A program made the translations under genes and the position numbers. A stretch of DNA of 63,478 bases, the filler included, from Folioceros fuciformis (lineage: Eukaryota): NCBI GenBank assembly GCA_049999805.1. It is 10 parts of 10 records of this genome, joined end to end, with 100 filler letters (N's around TTAATTAATTAA, not from the genome) between each part and the next. Parts side by side here need not be neighbours in the genome. Positions count along the whole stretch, not along the records: positions 3,353 to 16,069 come from JBNGIO010001937.1; 9 more parts are not named here. One strand, given 5' to 3'. Within the stretch, counting starts at the first letter, position 1; each line of letters begins with the position of its first letter. Under the pieces are notes generated by a model. That model worked only from the letters and a program-made list of their open reading frames with translations. It was not told the DNA's origin and searched no databases. Below are positions 1 through 16,069 of this stretch, one piece after another.

Positions 1-493
1 CAACTTGGGAACGTGCTTGTCTAAAAGCATTAATATGATGTTCGATACTATCGGATTCTTTCATAAATAAATTACGGAAGTTACGAGAAGCTGCCACAAT
101 GCTCATTACATCTTGTGATGAATATAATTGAGTAAGGTGAGACCACATTTCATGAGATGTTTTTGCATGTGCAACATGCCTGACCATTTGTTGAGAGAGT
201 CCACTTATTAATAAATCTTGTCCCTTCTCATCCCTGGTGTCCCAGGAAATCTGAAGTTCACGTTCATCATCAGACCTTGGTCTCGTTATGGATCCATCAA
301 CAATACCCCATAATGCTCTTTGTCTCAATGCTCCTCGCATACGTAATGCCCAAATATCATAATCTTTCCCGTTGAATCTATCTTTCTCTTTGAAACCATC
401 ACCAAAATGATAATGTGTAGGAGGATGGACATTATCATTACCCATAGGTGAGTTTGGCGTAGATTCAAATTCTTCTTCAATCACTCCGGCCAT
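1..493 (-). mobile_element. gag: Copia family A gag (N-terminal part, runs off the window)
   Basis: Open frame from ATG 493: MAGVIEEEF...FKEKDRFNGKDYDIWALRMRGALRQRALWGIVDGSITRP...AKTSHEMWSHLTQLY, typical Copia Gag/UBN2 motifs. Confidence 0.9.
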
Positions 494-505
494 AGCTAAT
501 CGTCC

Positions 506-1038
506 TTAGAGGACAAAGCTGTTGCGGTAAGGCTTATGCTCAATTTTATTGCACATATAGAATTCATCCATCGCGCTGTTTTCAGGAGATGATGACATAC
601 TCTCTAATCCTTGATTAGTATTAAACTCAGAAAGCAAAGAAAATTTTGATTTCAAATCAAATAATTCAGTTTGAAGATTAGAGACCTGAATTTTGAGAGA
701 TGAAAATTGATTATAAAAATCATGAAGAGATGGAGTTTGAATTCTATTTTTATTTGACAAAACAAGAGTACGGGAAGAACTTAATCCAATTATTAAATAA
801 TATGGTTAAGGGCCAATTCCAAAGCTTTAATGTGAATAGGGCTGAAGTATTCAAGTAAATGACATCTTGATAACTTAATAAGCTTCCCTTGATCTGGTTT
901 TGGAAATAAAATTGATGCAATGAAATTTGCTATAGATGAAGACATTTGTTCTATTTCACTCTCAATAGCTTGTTGCCTGATGAGATTCTCTTTCCTTTTA
1001 ACCTTCTGTTTTCTCCTTCTAATAGAATTGAAGGCCAT
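506..1038 (-). pseudogene. Extra ORF ('ORF0') upstream of gag in Copia family A, split by a stop/frameshift (793-1038 and 506-760)
   Basis: 38/48 aa identical to the ORF at 6757-6900 in a second element; lies between PBS and gag. Confidence 0.75.
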
Positions 1039-1214: not shown

Positions 1215-1226
1215 GTTCTGATACCA
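1215..1226 (-). promoter_or_regulatory. Primer binding site (tRNA-iMet type)
   Basis: TGGTATCAGAAC directly after the LTR end ...CTCATCA. Confidence 0.85.
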
Positions 1227-1463
1227 TGATGAGAATCTGTAGCTCTTAGATTGGAAGAAGATGAAACAATGTAAGTAATTAATGAGTAAAGTACAAGCCT
1301 TTAAATAGGCTGGGTAGTTGGGTGGTTACAACCATAAGTAGTCGCAACCATAAGTTGTTGTAACTAATATAACTACTAACTACCTAAATAACCCTAGGTA
1401 GATAATAATGTTTAAGTTATGAGGCCCTAATGAATAGTGCCCTAATCTAGACCTATTTCATCA
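1227..1463 (-). repeat. 5' LTR of Copia family A (237 bp), inserted into the RT of another Copia element
   Basis: TGATGA...TCATCA termini; homologous to 6150-6416; the RT frame 1442-1663 runs into it. Confidence 0.85.
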
Positions 1464-6149: not shown

Positions 6150-6416
6150 TGATGAAATATATCTAGCTTAGGGCACTATTCATTAGGGCCACATTATTTA
6201 GACATTATTGTATGCCTAAGGCATTAGATAGTTACCTAGTTAATTGCTCTAGGTAGTTAGTTGTTATATTAGTTGCAACAACTTATGGTTACAACTACTT
6301 ATAGTTGTAACCACCTAACAACCTCAAGCACCTAGCCTATATAAAGGCTTGTACTTTACTCTTTAATTCATTGCATTCTATCTTTTGCATCTTAGAGCAA
6401 GGCGTGATTTTCATCA
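6150..6416 (+). repeat. 5' LTR of Copia family A (267 bp), PBS TGGTATTAGAGC at 6417-6428
   Basis: TGATGA...TCATCA termini, TATATAAA box, homology to 1227-1463. Confidence 0.9.
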
Positions 6417-6617
6417 TGGTATTAGAGCATCTTGCTCTCCATTATGCGAGTGCAGCTTCAAGCATCTAAGGAGCTCATCTAGGAGGCATTTTCCAATCTA
6501 GCACCTTGTTAGATGGATTGTGTTTATTCTAAAATTGCTGCTCTTTTATGTTTCCTTCTCATGCGAATATCTCTTTTTTAATAATGCTCTTATGCACTAA
6601 TTTTTCGTCTTCTCTTC

Positions 6618-7110
6618 ATGGAAGTGATTTCTTTTAGTAGGAGGAGGCCTAGAATTAGAAAAAGAGATTGCCCTGCAAGACAACAAGAACAAGGTAGGAT
6701 CAAGAATATTAGAAGCAATAGAAGTTCTCAAATTATAGCAGGAGAGAGAAGAAATCTCTTCCTCCATAGCTAACTTCATTGCATCTATTCTAATTTCTAA
6801 ACCAGATCAAGGCAAGTTGATTAAGCTAGCTAGATGTGATTTGCCAGAAGTACTTAGTCCAATTTACATCAAAGCCTTAGAACTAGCTATCCAACATATC
6901 CCAAATTTGAGAGCTAGTACCAACACTCCTAAATTTTCTAGTCTACAGGGCCAAAACATAGAAACTGATAAAATTGATGACCAAGATAGACAACTATCAT
7001 CTCTAACAATTCATCGTCTTGATCTCAAGAGAAAGCTAACAGAACTTAGGACAGAGGTGTCCATTCTCTCTAAGTTCATAGATGTGCAGGAATCTCCAAG
7101 GAGGTCATGA
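6618..7110 (+). pseudogene. ORF0 of Copia family A (frameshifted near its 5' end)
   Basis: MEVISFSRRRPRIRKR... then SSSIANFIASILISKPDQGKLIKLARCDLPEVLSPIYIKALELAIQHI and a heptad-like LSSLTIHRLDLKRKLTELRTEVSILSKF. Confidence 0.75.
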
Positions 7111-7219
7111 TCTCATGATGCAGATTATTATGCAAGGGAGGAGTTTCGAGGTTGCAATAGAGAATTGAAAAGCTGTACCTTTGAGGCTTAGTCCTCTAGA
7201 TCACCTTCTATTGCTGGAG

Positions 7220-9560
7220 CTTATAATATTGAAGAAGAAGTTTCATCGTCACCAAACACACCCATGATGGATCCTTCTGGGAGTTCTAATCATACTTTGA
7301 TTAATTACTATGGTGACAACTTTAAAGAGAAGGATAGGTTCAATGGAAAGAATTATTATGTTTGGGCTATACGAATGAAAGGAGCCTTATGACAACGAGA
7401 TCTCTGGGAAATAGTCGAGGGAAGACTTTTCAGACCCACTGAAGGTTTTGAAGCACACCTTCGAATCTCCTGGGGCACAAGACCTTATTATCAGTGGACT
7501 TTCGAAGCAGATGGTGATACAAGTAGCTCATGCAAAGACCTCCCACGACATGTGGACTCACCTTGCTCAACTCTACTCCTCAATGGATGTTATGAGTATC
7601 GTTGCCGCTTCCCACAATTTCCGCAATCTTCAAATGAAGGAGTCTAATTCCATTGAACACCATATAAGTGCTTTTCGACTAGCGAGATCTCAACTTGAAG
7701 CTGCAAGTGGCATCCTTGTCCATGAGTTGGAAGCATATGTTATCCTTCTATCTTCTTTGCCGCCATCATATAGAGCTTTTGTCACAACTCAAAATGTTGT
7801 CCTCCGTAATGCAAGAAGGGAGGCAGATGAGAATCCATAAGCGGAAATTAAGCTCAGCATCGCCGAACTCATAGGAGCATTGATGGAAGAGGAATCAAGT
7901 CGGCGACACTCCAGAACCAAAAAGCAACAGGTGATGTTCACTATAAGGGGCAATGGAAGAGGACGAGGTTGTGGCCGAGGTTCTACTTCGCAGCGACCCC
8001 AGAATTCCAATGACAACTCTCAAAGACGAGAGACTTCCTCAACACCTGCAAGAGGTACCAAGAAGAAAGGCATCATTTGTAATTGGTGCAAGATCCCAAA
8101 TCACATGGAAAAGGATTGTTATAAGAAGAAAAATGATTTATGAAAGCTACAGTGGACTCTGAGTATGACTCTCTAGTTAAGAACTCTACATGGGAATTAG
8201 TTAAACCACCAAAAGGGAGAAAAATAGTTGGGAGCAAATGGGTCTTCAAAATCAAACGTAAGGGTGATGGTTCCATTGAGAGATATAAGGCAAGATTAGT
8301 AGCTAGAGGTTTTACCCAGATACCGAGTTTAGATTATATACCATAGGCTGTCTATGCTCTAGTAGCAAAGTTTGCCTCTCAGAATTATAATTGCCTTATT
8401 TGCTCAACATGATTTACATCTTCATATGATGGATGGCAAAACTGCTTATGTGCATGGACGCATTCAAGAAGAAATATACATGAAGCAAGTAATGGAACAA
8501 TGTTACATGACAAGCTAATCGCATATGGTTTTGTACAAAGCAAAGCTGATGCAAGCTTGTATATATTAAAGACAAAACAATATACAATTTATCTTTTACT
8601 TTATGTGGATGACTTATTTTTAGCATCATCCTCACTCTCCCACCTGGCTGAGATAAAGGCTTGGTTAAGAAGTCACTATGAAATGACAAACTTGGGAGAA
8701 CTCACCTATGCCCTTGGAGTCAATATCATAAGGGATAGAAGTGACAAATCCATTTCCTTAGTTCAGACAAAGTATGTAAAAGAGAGTTTAGCCAAGTTTG
8801 GACTTGAAGAAGCTAAACCAGCTGCCACACCTTTTCCTAGAGGCACAAGGCTCACTTTAGATATGAGCCCTAAGACTGATCTTGAGAAAGTCGAGATGTC
8901 AGCAGTATTATACAGACATACTGTTGGTACTTTAATATATTTAAGTAACTTCACAAGACGTGATATACCTTTCGAAGTTAGTGTAGTCTCACAATTTTTG
9001 GAGAACCCTAGCAACACTAGTTATGTGTCAAGAGGATTTTTAGGTATCTCGAAGGGACTATGCACACATGACTAATGTATAAACATACACCTGGCATATC
9101 CAAGTTAAATTTAACAGCATATGCCGATGTTGACTATGCTGGAGACCCAAACAGCCGAAAATCTGTATTTGGCTACGTTCTACTACTTGGAGGTGCTCCT
9201 ATCTCATGGTCAAGTAAGAAACAACCAACTATTGCTTTGTCAAGAACTGAGTCAGAGTATTAAGTTTTAACCTCAATCTCCAAAGATATACTCTGGAGTA
9301 GGTTAGCATTGAGTGAGTTGTGTTATCCTCAAAATGAGCCCACACCTCTGTTCAGTGATAGTCAGGGAGCAATAGCCTTAGCTAGAAACCACGTCTTCTA
9401 CCCCAGGATTAAGCATATAGCTGTAGAATATCATTACATATGTGAGATGTTAGAAAATAAAATAATAAATATAAATTATATACAAATCCAGGAAAATCCA
9501 GCTGATTTATTAACAAAGTCATTGGGCAGGGATTTACACCTTAAGCATATGAAAAGTTAA
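7220..9560 (+). mobile_element. Copia family A gag with zinc knuckle joined directly to RT-RNase H (protease/integrase missing); pseudogenised
   Basis: FKEKDRFNG, CNWCKIPNHMEKDC, then KATVDSEYDSLVKNSTWELV, LYVDDL, YADVDYAGD, KHIAVEYHYI. Confidence 0.92.
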
Positions 9561-9686
9561 GGAATATGTGAAGTTACCACTAATCTAGCTGTCAAGCGTA
9601 TGTAATTATAAACCACATAGATCATCTAGCATTTCAAGTTCAGCTTCTAACTCTAAATAGTATTCACTATACTCATTATTCTCTCT

Positions 9687-9753
9687 CTCTAATGCCCAAA
9701 AGGATCCTACATCAAAGTCCTCTAATGCCCAAAAGGATCCTACATCAAAGTCC
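9687..9753. repeat. 33-bp tandem duplication
   Basis: CTCTAATGCCCAAAAGGATCCTACATCAAAGTC x2. Confidence 0.9.
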
Positions 9754-9899
9754 ATTGGTTAAGTGACAAAAATGATGTGAATAACTTAGTTAAGTGGTTA
9801 GGACACTTACTATATAGGTGTTTAGTATGTCCTTCATATTCTTCACATGGGGATGCACCTAACCATATCATTTTTTTTCCTTTCTTGTCACATATATAC

Positions 9900-11788
9900 C
9901 CCATGGGAGCCTCATGGTCTCCACCCGGAGCTCATGTTGCTGTGAAGAAGCCATCTTCCACAACACCTTCGGCTCTCACAGTATGCTTGGCTTCATCATA
10001 GTCAACAAACCCACACTAGTATTTGGATAGTGGAGCCACCTCACATGTCTGCCATAATAGACACTTGTATGACTTTTATACTCCAGCTACAGGACAACAG
10101 TCTGTCTTACTGAGCGATGACCATAACCTTCCTGTTTTAGGTGTAAGTTCCGTTAAACTCAGATGTTCTTTAGGTCAAACTCTTCTTCTTTCTAACGTCC
10201 TCCATGTACCAGCTATGTGTAAAAATTTAGTGTCAGCCGCCAATTTATGTATAAAACATAATATGCAAGTCATTTTAGATGCAAACAGTTGTATTTTTAC
10301 TTACTCTCCAAGTGAATCCCTCAACATCTGCACAGGCGCAATAGAGAACGGGTTATATAACCTGTCAGTCCAAGTTGGATCCTCACATGATAGAATTAAT
10401 ATAGCTTCCCAAAACTCTCTCAACTCCAATGCAAATGTACTTTGGCATTGTAGATTAGGACATCCTAATAGCCAAAAGCTTGTCCAAATGTCTAAGGGAA
10501 ATTTTTAGAGACACCCTTCCCTTACTAAGAACCATTATCATGGTGTAAACCTTGTGATATCACTAAAAGACATCAAGCACCTTTTAAAAATAACTCTCCT
10601 CAGAGGGCTAAGGCACCCCTAGAGTTAGTTCACATAGACATTTGTGGCCCAATTTTTGCACCATCCTTCAGCGATTGCAGATACTTTATTACTTTTATTG
10701 ATGATTTCTCTCGCTTTACCACAACATACATCCTCAAGCACAAAAGTACAGCTTTTTAGTAATTTAAGGATTACATGATGTGGGCAGAGAGACTTACAGA
10801 GAAGAAACTCAAGCCCCTCCGTTCTGATAATGGAGGAGAATTTATCTCCAATGCTTTTACTGATTTTTGTCAAGCTCAAGGTATTGCTCAACAACTTACA
10901 GTGGTATATACACCTGAGCAAAATGGCATAGCAAAGAATAAGAACCTACGCCTTCAAGAGATAACAGGTTGCTTGCTCTCCCAAGCTAGATTAATTAAAC
11001 CATATTGGGCAGAAGCAATAAAAACAACAACTTATCTCATCAATAGACTGACAACTTCAGCAGTTAAAGGTATGACACCTTATAAAGCATTCACTGGAAG
11101 AAAGCCTTCCATCGACCACCTTCGGGTTTTTGGTTGTACGGCGTATGTTTATATTCCTAAAGCACAGCACAAGAAGTTAGATGATAAGGCTGCCAAATAT
11201 ACTTTTATTGGCTATAGAGAAGGTATCAAAGGATACAAATTATTTGATCCAACCATAAGGAGGCTCATTTGCCCTCGCAACCTTACTTTTAATGAGTCTC
11301 CCCTCTTATCCCCAGTGGACTCCAGCTCTCCTATATATGTCCCCGACGACAATACACTACCCTCATCTTTTGATGATGACGAATTTGTTAGTATCCATTA
11401 CCCTCCTTCCTCTCCTCCCGTTGAACCTATAATGCAAGAAGAGGAGGAGCCACCTTCTCCACGACGACCCACTACTCCAGATCCAGATATGGAAATTCCT
11501 CAGCATCTTAACAATATTTATGAGGTTCTAGATGATGATCTTCTAGATGATGTTGATCTAGATAATGAAGCCCATGAAGATCCTGCACAAGGAGAGAATC
11601 CAATCGTTGACGAAGAAGAGCATCCTGCACCAAGGTACAACCTAAGGACCAAACCTGCTGTTTGTGGCCCTGCAAGATGGAAGGAACCACCTTCAAGATA
11701 CCTTACCACTTTTGATGATCCCTTCTCACCTTTCTCCCATTTTCATCAATCTATTTATAAAGCTACAGTTGATCTTGAAGTTCCCTAG
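9900..11788 (+). mobile_element. Copia protease, GAG-pre-integrase and integrase segment (pseudogenised)
   Basis: LDSGATSHVC, LWHCRLGH, LRSDNGGEF, YTPEQNG, LRVFGCTAY, KGYKLFDP. Confidence 0.92.
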
Positions 11789-13062
11789 AAATATCATGTA
11801 GGTAACCTTAAATAGATTCCCAGCTGGTAGATAGGAAGTTGGTACTTTCCTTTTTGTATTTGTTTTTCCTTGGGTTACTTGTAGTGGTACGGCAAACCTC
11901 ACATGGCTTGTGCTTACACATTTATCCACACCTGCTATAGAAGTAGATTTTTATTAGGAAAAATGCTAGCTTTTTACCTTACATATATATGTACCCCTAC
12001 CTATCTTCCTACTCACTCTTCTCATTTCCATTGTTCTCTTTTTCCACCACTGGCTCCACTTTGTTAGCCTCCACCTCTTCAAGGTGGGGGCTATTTGCAC
12101 TTGGGTGCGACCTCCAACTCGGGCTCCCCTCACATACAGCCGGCTGGGAGGTCACATCATCCTTCATGGCGCCCCAGGACTCCTCCGACGTATCATCTTC
12201 TTCGACTTTGAAGTCATCATATCCTGGATCTTGTGAAGACACAACTCCCGAGTCTTCACTTGTCGGGTTTTTGCCTTTGGAATGAGTGGGAGATAATTGT
12301 CGACAAGGATTATCTACAACAACACCACAACTTAGCGTTATGCAATAATGCATTTCATGCAATTTATTTTAGGCTTATTCACTCACCAGCTTGTTCGACC
12401 TCCTTCATCACCACTTCGGCGTTCTCTATATTGGCTTGTACAACAAACAAGTCCTCCTCTTCATCAACCATCTCTTCACCTATGTTAGCAGCTTTGGCAC
12501 ATACTTGAAGAAAATCAGCATCAAAATTCGGATCCTCTATTGAATGACCAGGACCCGACATCGGGATTTGATCTCCCCGTGCTAATGCATCCCGATACCA
12601 TAAGATGCGTGCACGAGCAGCATGCCGACTCAAGGCATTTTTCTCCCTCCGAGGGGCCAGCTTTCTTCTCCTTGCCACACGCACCGCACGAGCTAATGTC
12701 TGTTTAGCCATCTTCATAGATACTAATTTGCTGTAACGCAGAGTGAGGGGGGGCGGGATATGCTCCTACACTCGCGCGCCCTGACACACCATGTAGCAGG
12801 AGGCAGCAATCTGCAAACAATGATCTACAGCATGAGCAATCATTAGCAACACTTGCGATGTAGCCAGTACTAGGATGCAGTAGAAATTGCGGCCTTTAGA
12901 CCCAGGATGCAGCAGCAATTGCGGCCTTTGGACCGCGGCAATCACCAGGAGTGGGAGTCGCGACGACGATCTAGCCGAGTGCACAGAGGAATGTGGCAGC
13001 CTCGGTGCGCAACACCTAACCACGGGCGTGCGAAGCATGGCGCTTGTAGAAGCCCAGAGCAT
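11726..13062 (-). CDS. Unidentified spliced gene (acidic central region, transit-peptide-like N-terminus); 3' exon runs into Copia integrase DNA
   Basis: GT-AG introns 12386-12275 and 12016-11932 both keep the frame (...EQA/GKNPTSED...GNEK/SVDKCVS); 5' exon boundaries are uncertain. Confidence 0.55.
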
Positions 13063-13123
13063 GGCGCCAATAGATGCATGGTGATGGCGGTACCACCTAG
13101 CCTATATAAAGGCTTGTACTTTA

Positions 13124-13344
13124 CCCTCCAACATCCAAGCAAGGATATTACTTATTAAAGCATGGGTAGGGAAACACTTTTGGCAAGTTCTCTACTCAAG
13201 ACTCCCTCCGACATCCAAGCAAGGATATTACTTATTGAAGCCATGGGTAGGGAAACACTTTTGGCAAGTCCTCTACTCAAGACTCCCTCCAACATCCAAG
13301 CAAGGATATTACTTATTAAAGCCATGGGTAGGGAAACACTTTTG
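13124..13344. repeat. Tandem repeat of an 80-81-bp unit, about 2.7 copies
   Basis: ACATCCAAGCAAGGATATTACTTATT... starts at 13131, 13211 and 13292. Confidence 0.92.
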
Positions 13345-14914: not shown

Positions 14915-15598
14915 ATGTTTGGTGTCCTCTTCCCTAATCGTAGCTTCCCCATGGACGCATCAAAGTTTTTCCAAGTGGATCCTCTCCACTGGATATTGGA
15001 TATGAACGCCTTGGTTGGTTGGTTTCCGTTCACAGTTCCATTGTGCTTTTCCAGCATTCTGTTGTTGAGCTAGTGTCTCGAGGTCAGCTTGGGATGTAGC
15101 TGACTTTCATCTTCTCCTCTGGTTGCAGGAGAAGGATACGAGGAAGTGAAGGAGATGTGTATCTTTCTTCTGAATGAGTTTTCCCTGCCAGCTGATAAAG
15201 CCCTAGCCGTTTACGTGCAAGCTCCAGGTTCTGCATTCGAGTATAGAGGTGCTGTGTTTGCCTCTTGCCCGTCAGCAGTGCTGCCACTGCTTTGGCCCAG
15301 TCGAGGCGGGAGTGGTCAAATGCAGCTCACAGGGGCTGACTGTCCCCCTCTCACAGCTATGATAGGAGTCTCCGTTGAAGATGTTGCTACTTTACCAGTG
15401 GTGAATGTCGGACAGCAGAGCCGCATTGAGGAGATGGCTCTAAAAGTAGGAGAAAATCTCTTCAACTTTATGCAGTCCTTCTGCAGTGTAGAGAGCAACA
15501 AACTTGTGGTTCCCTTGGATATCCTCGATCGATGGTTTAAGAAATTCCAAGATCGAGCCAAGCGAGACCCGGATTATCTCAATAGATTTAGAGTGTAG
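14915..15598 (+). CDS. OPI10: OPI10/Hikeshi-like protein (DUF775); exons 14915-15017 and 15129-15598
   Basis: MFGVLFPNRSFPMD...CIFLLNEFSLPADKALAVYVQAPGS...KVGENLFNFMQSFC...LDRWFKKFQDRAKRDP; GT-AG intron keeps the frame. Confidence 0.9.
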
Positions 15599-16069
15599 AT
15601 GAACACCCTAGGGCCCCTTGGAAATAGAACGTTCCTGGCGCAGAGCTCCTGTCTCCCTCTAACCAGGAGAACAATTTTGAACTGCTATCTGGTGGTCTGG
15701 ACGTTTCCACACCGTATTGACCGTGGTGGCCCACTTTTGCCGAATCCCAGATACTTCCAGCTCCTGGTCTGTGATGCTTGCTCCTAACGGAGACGATCCC
15801 TGCCTGGCACGTCGCCGGCATCACGCCCACTAGAATCTTGCAGCGTGCAACTTGGACATGGTGTGAGGTTCATGGGGATATCCTTCCACACACAGGCGAA
15901 AAAGGACATGCTCGCGCCATGGGAGGACAAAACCACGATGGTAACAACTTCCACGGTTTATCCGTAACCATTTCCTGTCAGAGGCGCTTTCTCTCATCAG
16001 GCTAGTGTGAAGCTGACGCCGCTGCGGGAGTGGAGGTGTAGTGAAGAATCAAATGCGAGGGCGTGAGAC

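Follow-up and report, generated by a model that had tools for sequence, protein, structure and literature searches.

The window, the whole stretch of DNA analysed (63,478 nucleotides of Folioceros fuciformis, in ten parts joined end to end), contains two homologous 5' ends of LTR elements, copies A and B, in which the sequence of an additional reading frame (ORF0) lies between the PBS and gag. Copy A, on the plus strand, begins with a 267-bp 5' LTR (6150..6416) that runs from TGATGA to TCATCA and has a TATA-like box at 6338; the LTR is followed by the PBS (6417..6428), presumably of the tRNA-Met type, and by a leader (6429..6617) in which several short ORFs and a pyrimidine run precede the ORF0 ATG. 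ORF0 (6618..7199, with profile matches at 6618-6749 and 6727-7164) specifies a basic N-terminus, a helical core and a heptad helix, and its conserved three-helix core maps to 6757..6900. The downstream gag (7210..8133), which has its own N-terminus with DUF4219 and Retrotran_gag_2 domains, is broken, as is the RT-RNase H region (8129..9605), while a protease-integrase (PR-IN) block is displaced to 9922..11780, as seen from collinearity with the sister loci L072 and L075. Copy B, on the minus strand, comprises a 5' LTR (1227..1463), a PBS (1215..1226), ORF0 (506..1038, core at 942-799) and a gag (1..493) that begins 12 nt past the ORF0 stop and is cut by the window edge.

Both window copies of ORF0 are relics. 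That of copy A has frameshifts near 6750 and near 7165 and a premature stop at 7108-7110, and the ATG at the gag start position is lost; that of copy B is frameshifted near 798. An earlier reading of this DNA, made from the sequence alone (the sequence-only reading), held that two elements of the window carry ORF0, which is correct for homologous ORF0 sequence but not for open frames, neither copy being open. Its structural description is otherwise accurate: (i) ORF0 starts about 180-190 nt after the PBS, the distance from the first base of the PBS (6417 and 1226) to the ATG (6618 and 1038) being 201 and 188 nt, (ii) it ends just ahead of gag, the family stop positions being 7197-7199 in copy A and 508-506 in copy B with gag starting at 7210 and 493, (iii) the LTRs are short, and (iv) basic stretches are present in both copies. 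A recount of the 48-aa cores gives exactly the 38 identical residues and the 18 of these with different codons that had been reported, and core differences between copies A and B are distributed 14/3/24 by codon position over 49 codons. Copy A is 87% identical to the C6418 element over 6150-8133. The position of its PR-IN block behind RT-RNase H reflects an internal rearrangement or a misassembly within one contig. At 13097-13340, the expected site of its 3' LTR, a short LTR fragment with a TATA box is followed by 81-nt tandem repeats, and a host Hikeshi-like gene (PF05603, PF21057) lies further downstream at about 14930-15600 (+).

The F. fuciformis genome (87 Mb, 7,240 contigs) was searched for ORF0, as the sequence-only reading had advised. 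The window peptide has at least 41 matches and that of a distant sister at least 50; intact ORF0s were found only in sister copies, which belong to several subfamilies, are 175-203 aa in length and diverge to 17-20% identity compared to the first sequence. Three sisters (C5093, C4891 and C6374) combine an open ORF0 with an open Gag-Pol of 1,439-1,491 codons from stop to stop. Even without ORF0, Gag-Pol forms one complete ORF (1431-1485 aa), and both of the sister elements scanned present Retrotran_gag_2, Pol_BBD, gag_pre-integrs, rve, SH3 and RVT_2 in this Copia order in one ORF. The gag-PR-IN-RT-RH order with RVT_2 places the family in Ty1/copia, and it belongs to no named extra-ORF family tested. 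Family elements are 7.7-8.2 kb with paired TG...CA LTRs, a PBS and a PPT. The C5093 element is 8,172 bp with 268-bp LTRs that are 99.6% identical, and, thus, the ORF0 layout was mobile recently. For 5-bp target-site duplications, C5093 shows no match and C5965 agrees by eye at four of five positions. The C5093 element (L097) seems chimeric, as its ORF0 and gag group with C5965/C3228 and its RT with C6418/C4891. In C6374 (L082), another PBS directly follows the 3' LTR, indicative of tandem elements that share an LTR or of a collapsed assembly.

An RT tree of 155 rows, built by a quick method, unites 20 rows (16 elements) of the family in one clade (SH-aLRT 100, stem 0.5). None of the 111 database proteins falls inside this clade, and the best RT identity is 44.7%. 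The phylogeny that the sequence-only reading had called for thus yields a separate Copia clade, placed among database proteins instead of REXdb references. A census of the family was based on the top 46 matches of an independent gag search, from which seven copies with uninformative 5' ends were left out (five at or near contig ends and two interrupted by foreign DNA). ORF0 sequence is present in 37 of the 39 informative copies, four of them partial, and the remaining two (C3542 and C2498) are without the ORF0 core. The ORF0 profile matched none of 18 more distant Copia elements, hand-picked from about 100 lower gag matches. In trees of 15 elements, ORF0 and gag form largely the same groups, with L064, L088/L079 and L080 placed differently.

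Selection on the ORF0 protein is evident in all three subfamily groups analysed by codon maximum likelihood (ML). The eight window-like copies have a dN/dS of 0.39 (2dlnL 61.9 versus dN/dS = 1), the 51-codon core of the same copies 0.19 (2dlnL 52.1), and the other two groups, of six and seven copies, 0.49 and 0.33 (2dlnL 33.8 and 73.3); the corresponding value for gag is 0.11. The copies were selected for open frames, and a few have frameshifted tails. NG86 pairwise estimates are 0.20-0.72 in 44 of the 45 pairs listed (45 of 78; pS<0.72), the exception being a near-identical pair with 1.78 at a dS of 0.008, and for the core, comparisons of the most divergent groups give values close to 1, at a pS that approaches saturation. 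The other five frames over ORF0 are closed in all 13 open-frame copies, with 3-27 stops each (3-23 in the three antisense frames). Purifying selection, which the sequence-only reading had suspected from two copies, is therefore borne out, and the neutral ratio across copies that would have spoken against it is rejected in each group. It is almost certain that ORF0 codes for a protein, as an accessory ORF that is distinct from Gag and close to fixation in a single Copia clade.

The separation of ORF0 from Gag is apparent at their junction. In all 24 copies compared, the ORF0 stop precedes an ATG, with all three relative frames and all three stop codons represented, at a distance of 10 nt (seven copies), 11 nt (three), 12 nt (nine), 18 nt (two), 22 nt (two) or 6 nt (one). 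Gag has its own ATG and complete DUF4219 and Retrotran_gag_2 domains. ORF0 is thus not a Gag domain, since across these copies it is neither continuous with Gag nor joined to it by one fixed recoding frame and Gag is complete without it; Pfam, PDB and the protein collections also provide no match of ORF0 to an annotated Gag N-terminal domain or known accessory ORF, either of which would have contradicted the sequence-only reading. No single readthrough or frameshift rule fits the junction, which would leave reinitiation or a separate RNA as the route to Gag-Pol. Reinitiation behind an ORF of 190 codons is normally inefficient, and no reinitiation motif was identified. A badnavirus-style, AUG-free leaky scanning is unlikely because ORF0 is not cleared of AUGs: 12 ORF0s have 4-10 internal ATGs each, with 66 out of frame compared to 78 expected.

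Access to ORF0 itself from the LTR start is not obvious, since the leader has 5-11 upstream ATGs in all 13 sister copies and the ORF0 ATG is preceded by a -3 purine in only 4 of 13 (a +4 G is found in 11 of 13). The single sequencing run compared for expression yielded two short pieces, neither of them over ORF0. A short ORF that spans about -100 to -36 is frequent in the leader, as is an ATG near -37, out of frame and situated within a small palindrome. This ATGCA...TGCAT palindrome, located some 37-20 nt ahead of the ORF0 start codon (window about 6581-6598) and clearest in L078, L080, L082 and L063, overlaps the short upstream ORF stop and the out-of-frame ATG and is a possible dimerisation or translation signal. 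A CACCTGC-like motif before the gag ATG (window 7200-7209) recurs in many subfamilies and on the reverse strand resembles a splice donor; ACCTG before gag is also noted in some elements of the MPR type described below. A candidate splice acceptor just inside ORF0, with a branch-like motif and a pyrimidine run, was discarded, its phase being inconsistent between subfamilies by eye.

The two elements without the core, C3542 (L135/L209) and C2498 (L136/L210), retain the PBS, the ORF0 ATG and a long open gag-pol but lack about 400 nt that include the ORF0 core. A 52-codon ORF that finishes just before gag is left. Compared to L075, the 3' remnant of ORF0 has 13 replacement and 0 silent changes in 25 codons, and intact sisters have 4-5 replacement and 3 silent changes at the same codons. 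The first 80 gag codons of C3542/C2498 have 13-14 silent and 7 replacement changes, similar to the sisters, and the gag-pol frame is open over 844-854 codons. Replication appears to have continued without the ORF0 core, given that the remnant has decayed and gag is still constrained. With 99% identity between them, the two contigs could derive from a single insertion. ORF0 is, thus, probably not needed in cis, and the loss of the core would fit supply in trans or plain dispensability equally. The deletion is not readily explained as a spliced retrocopy, given that the breakpoints are not a clean GT-AG pair. A different, 300-nt deletion in L145 (C6264) removes the ORF0 ATG and core.

The ORF0 protein was modelled with AlphaFold2 from 24 natural copies (mean pLDDT 65, pTM only 0.34). 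Helices are predicted at residues 19-59, 65-77, 82-93 and 115-157, with pLDDT values of 85-89 over residues 41-90 and 82-87 over 121-150. The model consists of a weakly ordered basic N-terminus, the three-helix core, a linker, the long helix and a variable tail. In the 16 copies that start with ATG, any 19 consecutive residues include at most 13 hydrophobic ones, and, thus, ORF0 is not env-like. A C-terminal CxxC is found in some subfamilies and is not family-wide. In 12 of the 24 ORF0s aligned, a basic cluster is stronger than in shuffled sequences (p<=0.053); it is not significant in subfamilies L080/L082/L079, and patterns similar to export signals are at chance level (33-76% of shuffles have them). 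The accessory nuclear protein proposed by the sequence-only reading thus stands as a conserved accessory gene separate from Gag, with its nuclear part tied to the basic cluster of these 12 copies.

Homologs of ORF0 are absent among 2,342 candidate proteins. Two matches among 1.84 billion representatives were rejected as long repeat proteins aligned in six stretches, the ESM Atlas gave no usable match, and 411 pattern matches in metagenomes included none that was confirmed (a gag profile gave 13 matches, none confirmed); the exact sequences are absent from the collection. Six ORF0 proteins searched against Pfam (E<=1) matched no PMD, Transposase_28 or Athila ORF-1, and Pfam and fold searches gave no match to chromatin-reader, DNA-binding or silencing-suppressor families. 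Weak PDB sequence matches are restricted to the heptad region. The structure comparison that had been recommended was performed with Foldseek (PDB, viral) and VIA-align and yielded helical background with none at E<=0.001; the best structural match (Z 6.1, rmsd 8.3, 87 residues aligned) is of this kind. The description of ORF0 as part of a short-LTR Copia lineage of unrecognised family is consistent with these searches of Pfam, PDB and the protein collections. The blanks are weak evidence and show no more than that the lineage is unsampled, since even the RT-RNase H region of the family has no close relative in the same collections (best 47%).

The elements that carry ORF0 also have four conserved antisense segments in the interval of about 2.3 kb between the pol stop and the PPT. 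Copy A retains all four exons of this antisense gene (12717-9606, minus strand): exon A (12387..12717), with a basic stretch, an EDPNF motif and an uncertain start codon; exon B (12017..12313), which is acidic with a CEGSPSW motif; exon C, split by the displaced PR-IN block into 5' (11780..11931) and 3' (9811..9922) halves; and exon D (9606..9739), with an acidic tail and, in this copy, a short tandem duplication. The gene is also found at L075:943-2219 (+) and L097:1590-2791 (+). The splice model predicts three conserved phase-1 GT-AG introns of 71-87 nt, and the donor and acceptor motifs are at the same places in most of the 20 loci listed. The spliced frame is open in three of six copies (350, 322 and 345 codons), the other three having no open model, and the predicted protein of 320-350 aa has a basic N-part and an acidic tail. 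Exon C has 38 genome matches and a dN/dS of 0.23 (14 copies). The ORF0 elements thus carry a second, antisense gene, overlooked in the sequence-only reading, that is under selection, as judged from its codons, and that is predicted to be spliced. Splicing of the genomic RNA before reverse transcription spares introns of antisense orientation, and these introns would survive because they face away from the reverse-transcribed RNA. Six segments of the gene matched no PMD, Transposase_28, Athila ORF-1 or SMC domain in Pfam (E<=1), and exon C has no Pfam match and no homolog in the protein databases. Rhodanese rows for exon C in the ESM Atlas were sub-0.9 and not accepted, and its structure model (pLDDT 42) is unusable.

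ORF0 is not the only reading frame found in this position in the genome, a point that the sequence-only reading missed. In more distant Copia elements the distance from PBS to gag core is 600-1,200 nt (10 of the 18 with a detectable PBS). A separate Copia clade (SH-aLRT 99) carries an ORF of 190-215 aa that starts with MPR at 195-325 nt past the PBS and stops close to the gag ATG; it has 54 genome matches and a dN/dS of 0.28 and is exemplified by L181:824-1396 (-), L165:5181-5780 (-), L015:1376-1984 (+) and L168:5816-6406 (-). The ORF0 and MPR profiles align only in the heptad region (hhalign probability 2%, E 0.023). Other sense ORFs of 166-240 codons precede gag at L164:3892-4611 (-), L169:5709-6221 (-), L170:5981-6631 (-) and L175:836-1333 (+) and match neither profile. 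The PBS-gag interval is thus a recurrent slot in the Copia elements of this host, with different 5' ORFs residing there in several of them.

ORF0 is tentatively viewed as a trans-acting, probably nuclear regulator of the element's own full-length RNA; that it acts in trans, with Gag-Pol made by reinitiation, is the likelier part of this proposal, reasoned from sequence. ORF0 would form the first long cistron of an LTR-driven genomic RNA, reached past the short upstream ORFs, and Gag-Pol would be produced by termination-reinitiation at the ATG about 10-22 nt past the ORF0 stop. The protein of ~190 aa would act in trans, as suggested by the continued replication of the subfamily without the core. 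In the least certain steps, the basic N-terminus may provide a nuclear signal and contact nucleic acid, the three-helix core may bind a partner from the host or the element, and oligomerisation may be the role of the long helix. The protein might in this way aid expression or export of its own full-length RNA, similarly to CERV of Cer1 and to Rev, to which it is unrelated. The spliced antisense gene behind pol would encode a second accessory protein.

A role on the chromatin side, in which ORF0 is an anti-silencing protein or an integration-targeting adaptor, perhaps with the antisense product, is possible but doubtful. ORF0 evolves faster than gag (0.33-0.49 versus 0.11) and is without relatives outside the host, both as expected of a host-interacting factor; the basic N-terminus, the C-terminal CxxC of some subfamilies and the nuclear location of the antisense extra ORF products of Grande (PMC7264820) point in the same direction. 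The CxxC is not conserved family-wide, however, and the searches for chromatin-reader, DNA-binding and silencing-suppressor families were blank. It is rather unlikely that ORF0 is instead a cytoplasmic partner of Gag (a minor particle component, an assembly chaperone or a self-limiting copy-number factor): although ORF0 is placed for coupled translation with Gag, its tree follows that of gag, and a basic tail with a coiled coil would be suited to the assembly of RNA and protein, Gag itself is typical and complete, and the core-less subfamily keeps it constrained.

Other explanations assign less to the ORF0 protein. A function mainly in cis, in which a long upstream ORF meters ribosomes to gag-pol and the protein is secondary, would account for the start (about 180-210 nt past the PBS) and stop-start spacing kept across subfamilies, for the repetition of this spacing by an ORF without detected similarity in another clade, and for the 52-codon ORF that the core-deleted subfamily retains just before gag; such timing would need neither a core dN/dS of 0.19 nor a helical pattern kept at 17-30% identity, which makes this explanation improbable. 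Extension of Gag at its N-terminus through readthrough, frameshift or splicing is more improbable still: in 12 of 24 copies the ATG that follows ORF0 shares its frame (gaps of 6, 12 and 18 nt), and S-P-x is a frequent reading, in the gag frame, of the codons ahead of the gag ATG, yet the other 12 copies have the following ATG in the +1 or +2 frame, each of the three stop codons is represented, inspection by eye revealed no common acceptor or slippery site before the gag ATG, and Gag's own ATG is conserved. Conservation of a non-coding kind, as RNA structure or as the shadow of an antisense gene, is very hard to credit; the region does come after the PBS, in a part where packaging signals reside, and an antisense gene exists elsewhere in the element, but dN/dS = 1 is rejected in three groups and the antisense frames over ORF0 are closed in 13 of 13 copies.

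With the trans-acting regulator as the favoured reading of ORF0, the family may represent a 'complex' Copia lineage in which selection acts on two accessory genes, one in sense orientation ahead of gag and one antisense, with introns, downstream of pol. This broader view is also tentative. It would include at least two clades that have different, or unrecognisably diverged, helical proteins of ~200 aa at the same spot with Gag-Pol as the second cistron, would make ORF0 a trans-acting plant Copia counterpart of retroviral regulatory proteins, and would predict that the layout is widespread in Copia of this plant group and hidden by 250-codon filters. The layout is more complex than known for copia elements: plant Copia is usually regarded as gag-pol-only except for SIRE, and here a recently active clade has two further selected genes, neither of which has a recognisable relative. 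The family provides a compact test case for the role of extra ORFs in plant LTR elements, with natural core-deleted variants for comparison, and poses the problem of translating a polyprotein that lies behind an ORF of 190 codons.

Among Copia elements, SIRE (Sirevirus) is defined by a sense env-like ORF 3' of pol and a mean length of about 10 kb, whereas the present 3' gene is antisense and spliced in an element of 7.7-8.2 kb. Bianca has a half-tRNA-Ile PBS and separate gag and pol ORFs, unlike the present family, in which the PBS begins TGGTATCAGAGC and gag-pol is a single ORF. According to the accessible part of the reference survey (PMC6317226), a 3' sense ORF occurs in 74% of SIRE elements, and extra ORFs are rare in Bianca, with 5 and 2%, and in Ikeros, with 4 and 6%. 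At 4.7 and 5.3 kb, respectively, Lyco and Bryco could not accommodate the present layout. In that part, common 5' extra ORFs are given for Gypsy only, and neither a common 5' ORF nor a common antisense ORF is recorded for any Copia lineage. The threshold stated there is 250 codons, and, thus, the 190-codon ORF0 and exons of 33-145 codons would escape the survey; a filter for unspliced ORFs of this length can miss whole classes of accessory genes. The literature searched, mostly non-subscription, mentions neither a conserved 5' ORF nor a spliced antisense gene for any lineage of plant Copia.

Grande, RIRE2 and Retand are Gypsy elements. As described in the portions available of PMC7264820 and PMC4093653, these elements and PvRetro13 share with the present family a conserved gene in antisense orientation, situated between pol and the 3' LTR, and the bean elements with antisense 3' ORFs are likewise Gypsy (PMC4093653). 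No introns are described for the antisense ORFs of Grande, RIRE2, Retand and PvRetro13 (PMC7264820), by contrast with the three predicted here. The same review covers 3' sense and antisense ORFs, notes that the Grande products are nuclear, and urges a search for antisense and spliced transcripts (PMC7264820).

Retroviral Rev is a nuclear accessory protein that exports unspliced genomic RNA. The likeness to Rev and CERV serves as a working model only, that of a nuclear accessory protein letting unspliced genomic RNA out. CERV of the Caenorhabditis elegans element Cer1, an element-encoded accessory protein, offers a functional precedent, but it is made from spliced RNA in the accessible account (PMC10309623), and no sequence or fold link of either protein to ORF0 was found.

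Extra ORFs upstream of gag were represented in the sequence-only reading by the 5' ORF1 of Ogre, with the 3' env-like ORF of Sireviruses as the only other type; this list was too short, since 5' ORFs are also known in Tekay and Retrosat2 (PMC3485330, accessible part). The survey sections at hand report a sense ORF upstream of gag in 33% of Tekay, 23% of TatII and 21% of Ogre elements (PMC6317226), and coiled coils are reported in Tat extra ORFs (PMC6317226 and PMC4408406, in part). These lineages differ in that all are Gypsy, and their PMD, Transposase_28 and Athila ORF-1 domains are not matched by ORF0. The name ORF0 is already in use for the Ty3/gypsy elements Retrosat2, FRetro3, RIRE3 and RIRE8 of grasses (PMC3485330). 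In the accessible text of that study, the Retrosat2 ORF0 is similarly a separate ORF between the 5' LTR and gag-pol, is lineage-restricted and of unknown function, and evolves faster than the polyprotein. Retrosat2 is a Gypsy element with LTRs over 3 kb, whereas the present family has Copia order, LTRs of ~270 bp and a spliced antisense gene; no database match linked the two ORF0s. On the portion of the account available, the Retrosat2 ORF0 is the closest architectural precedent for the gene described here.
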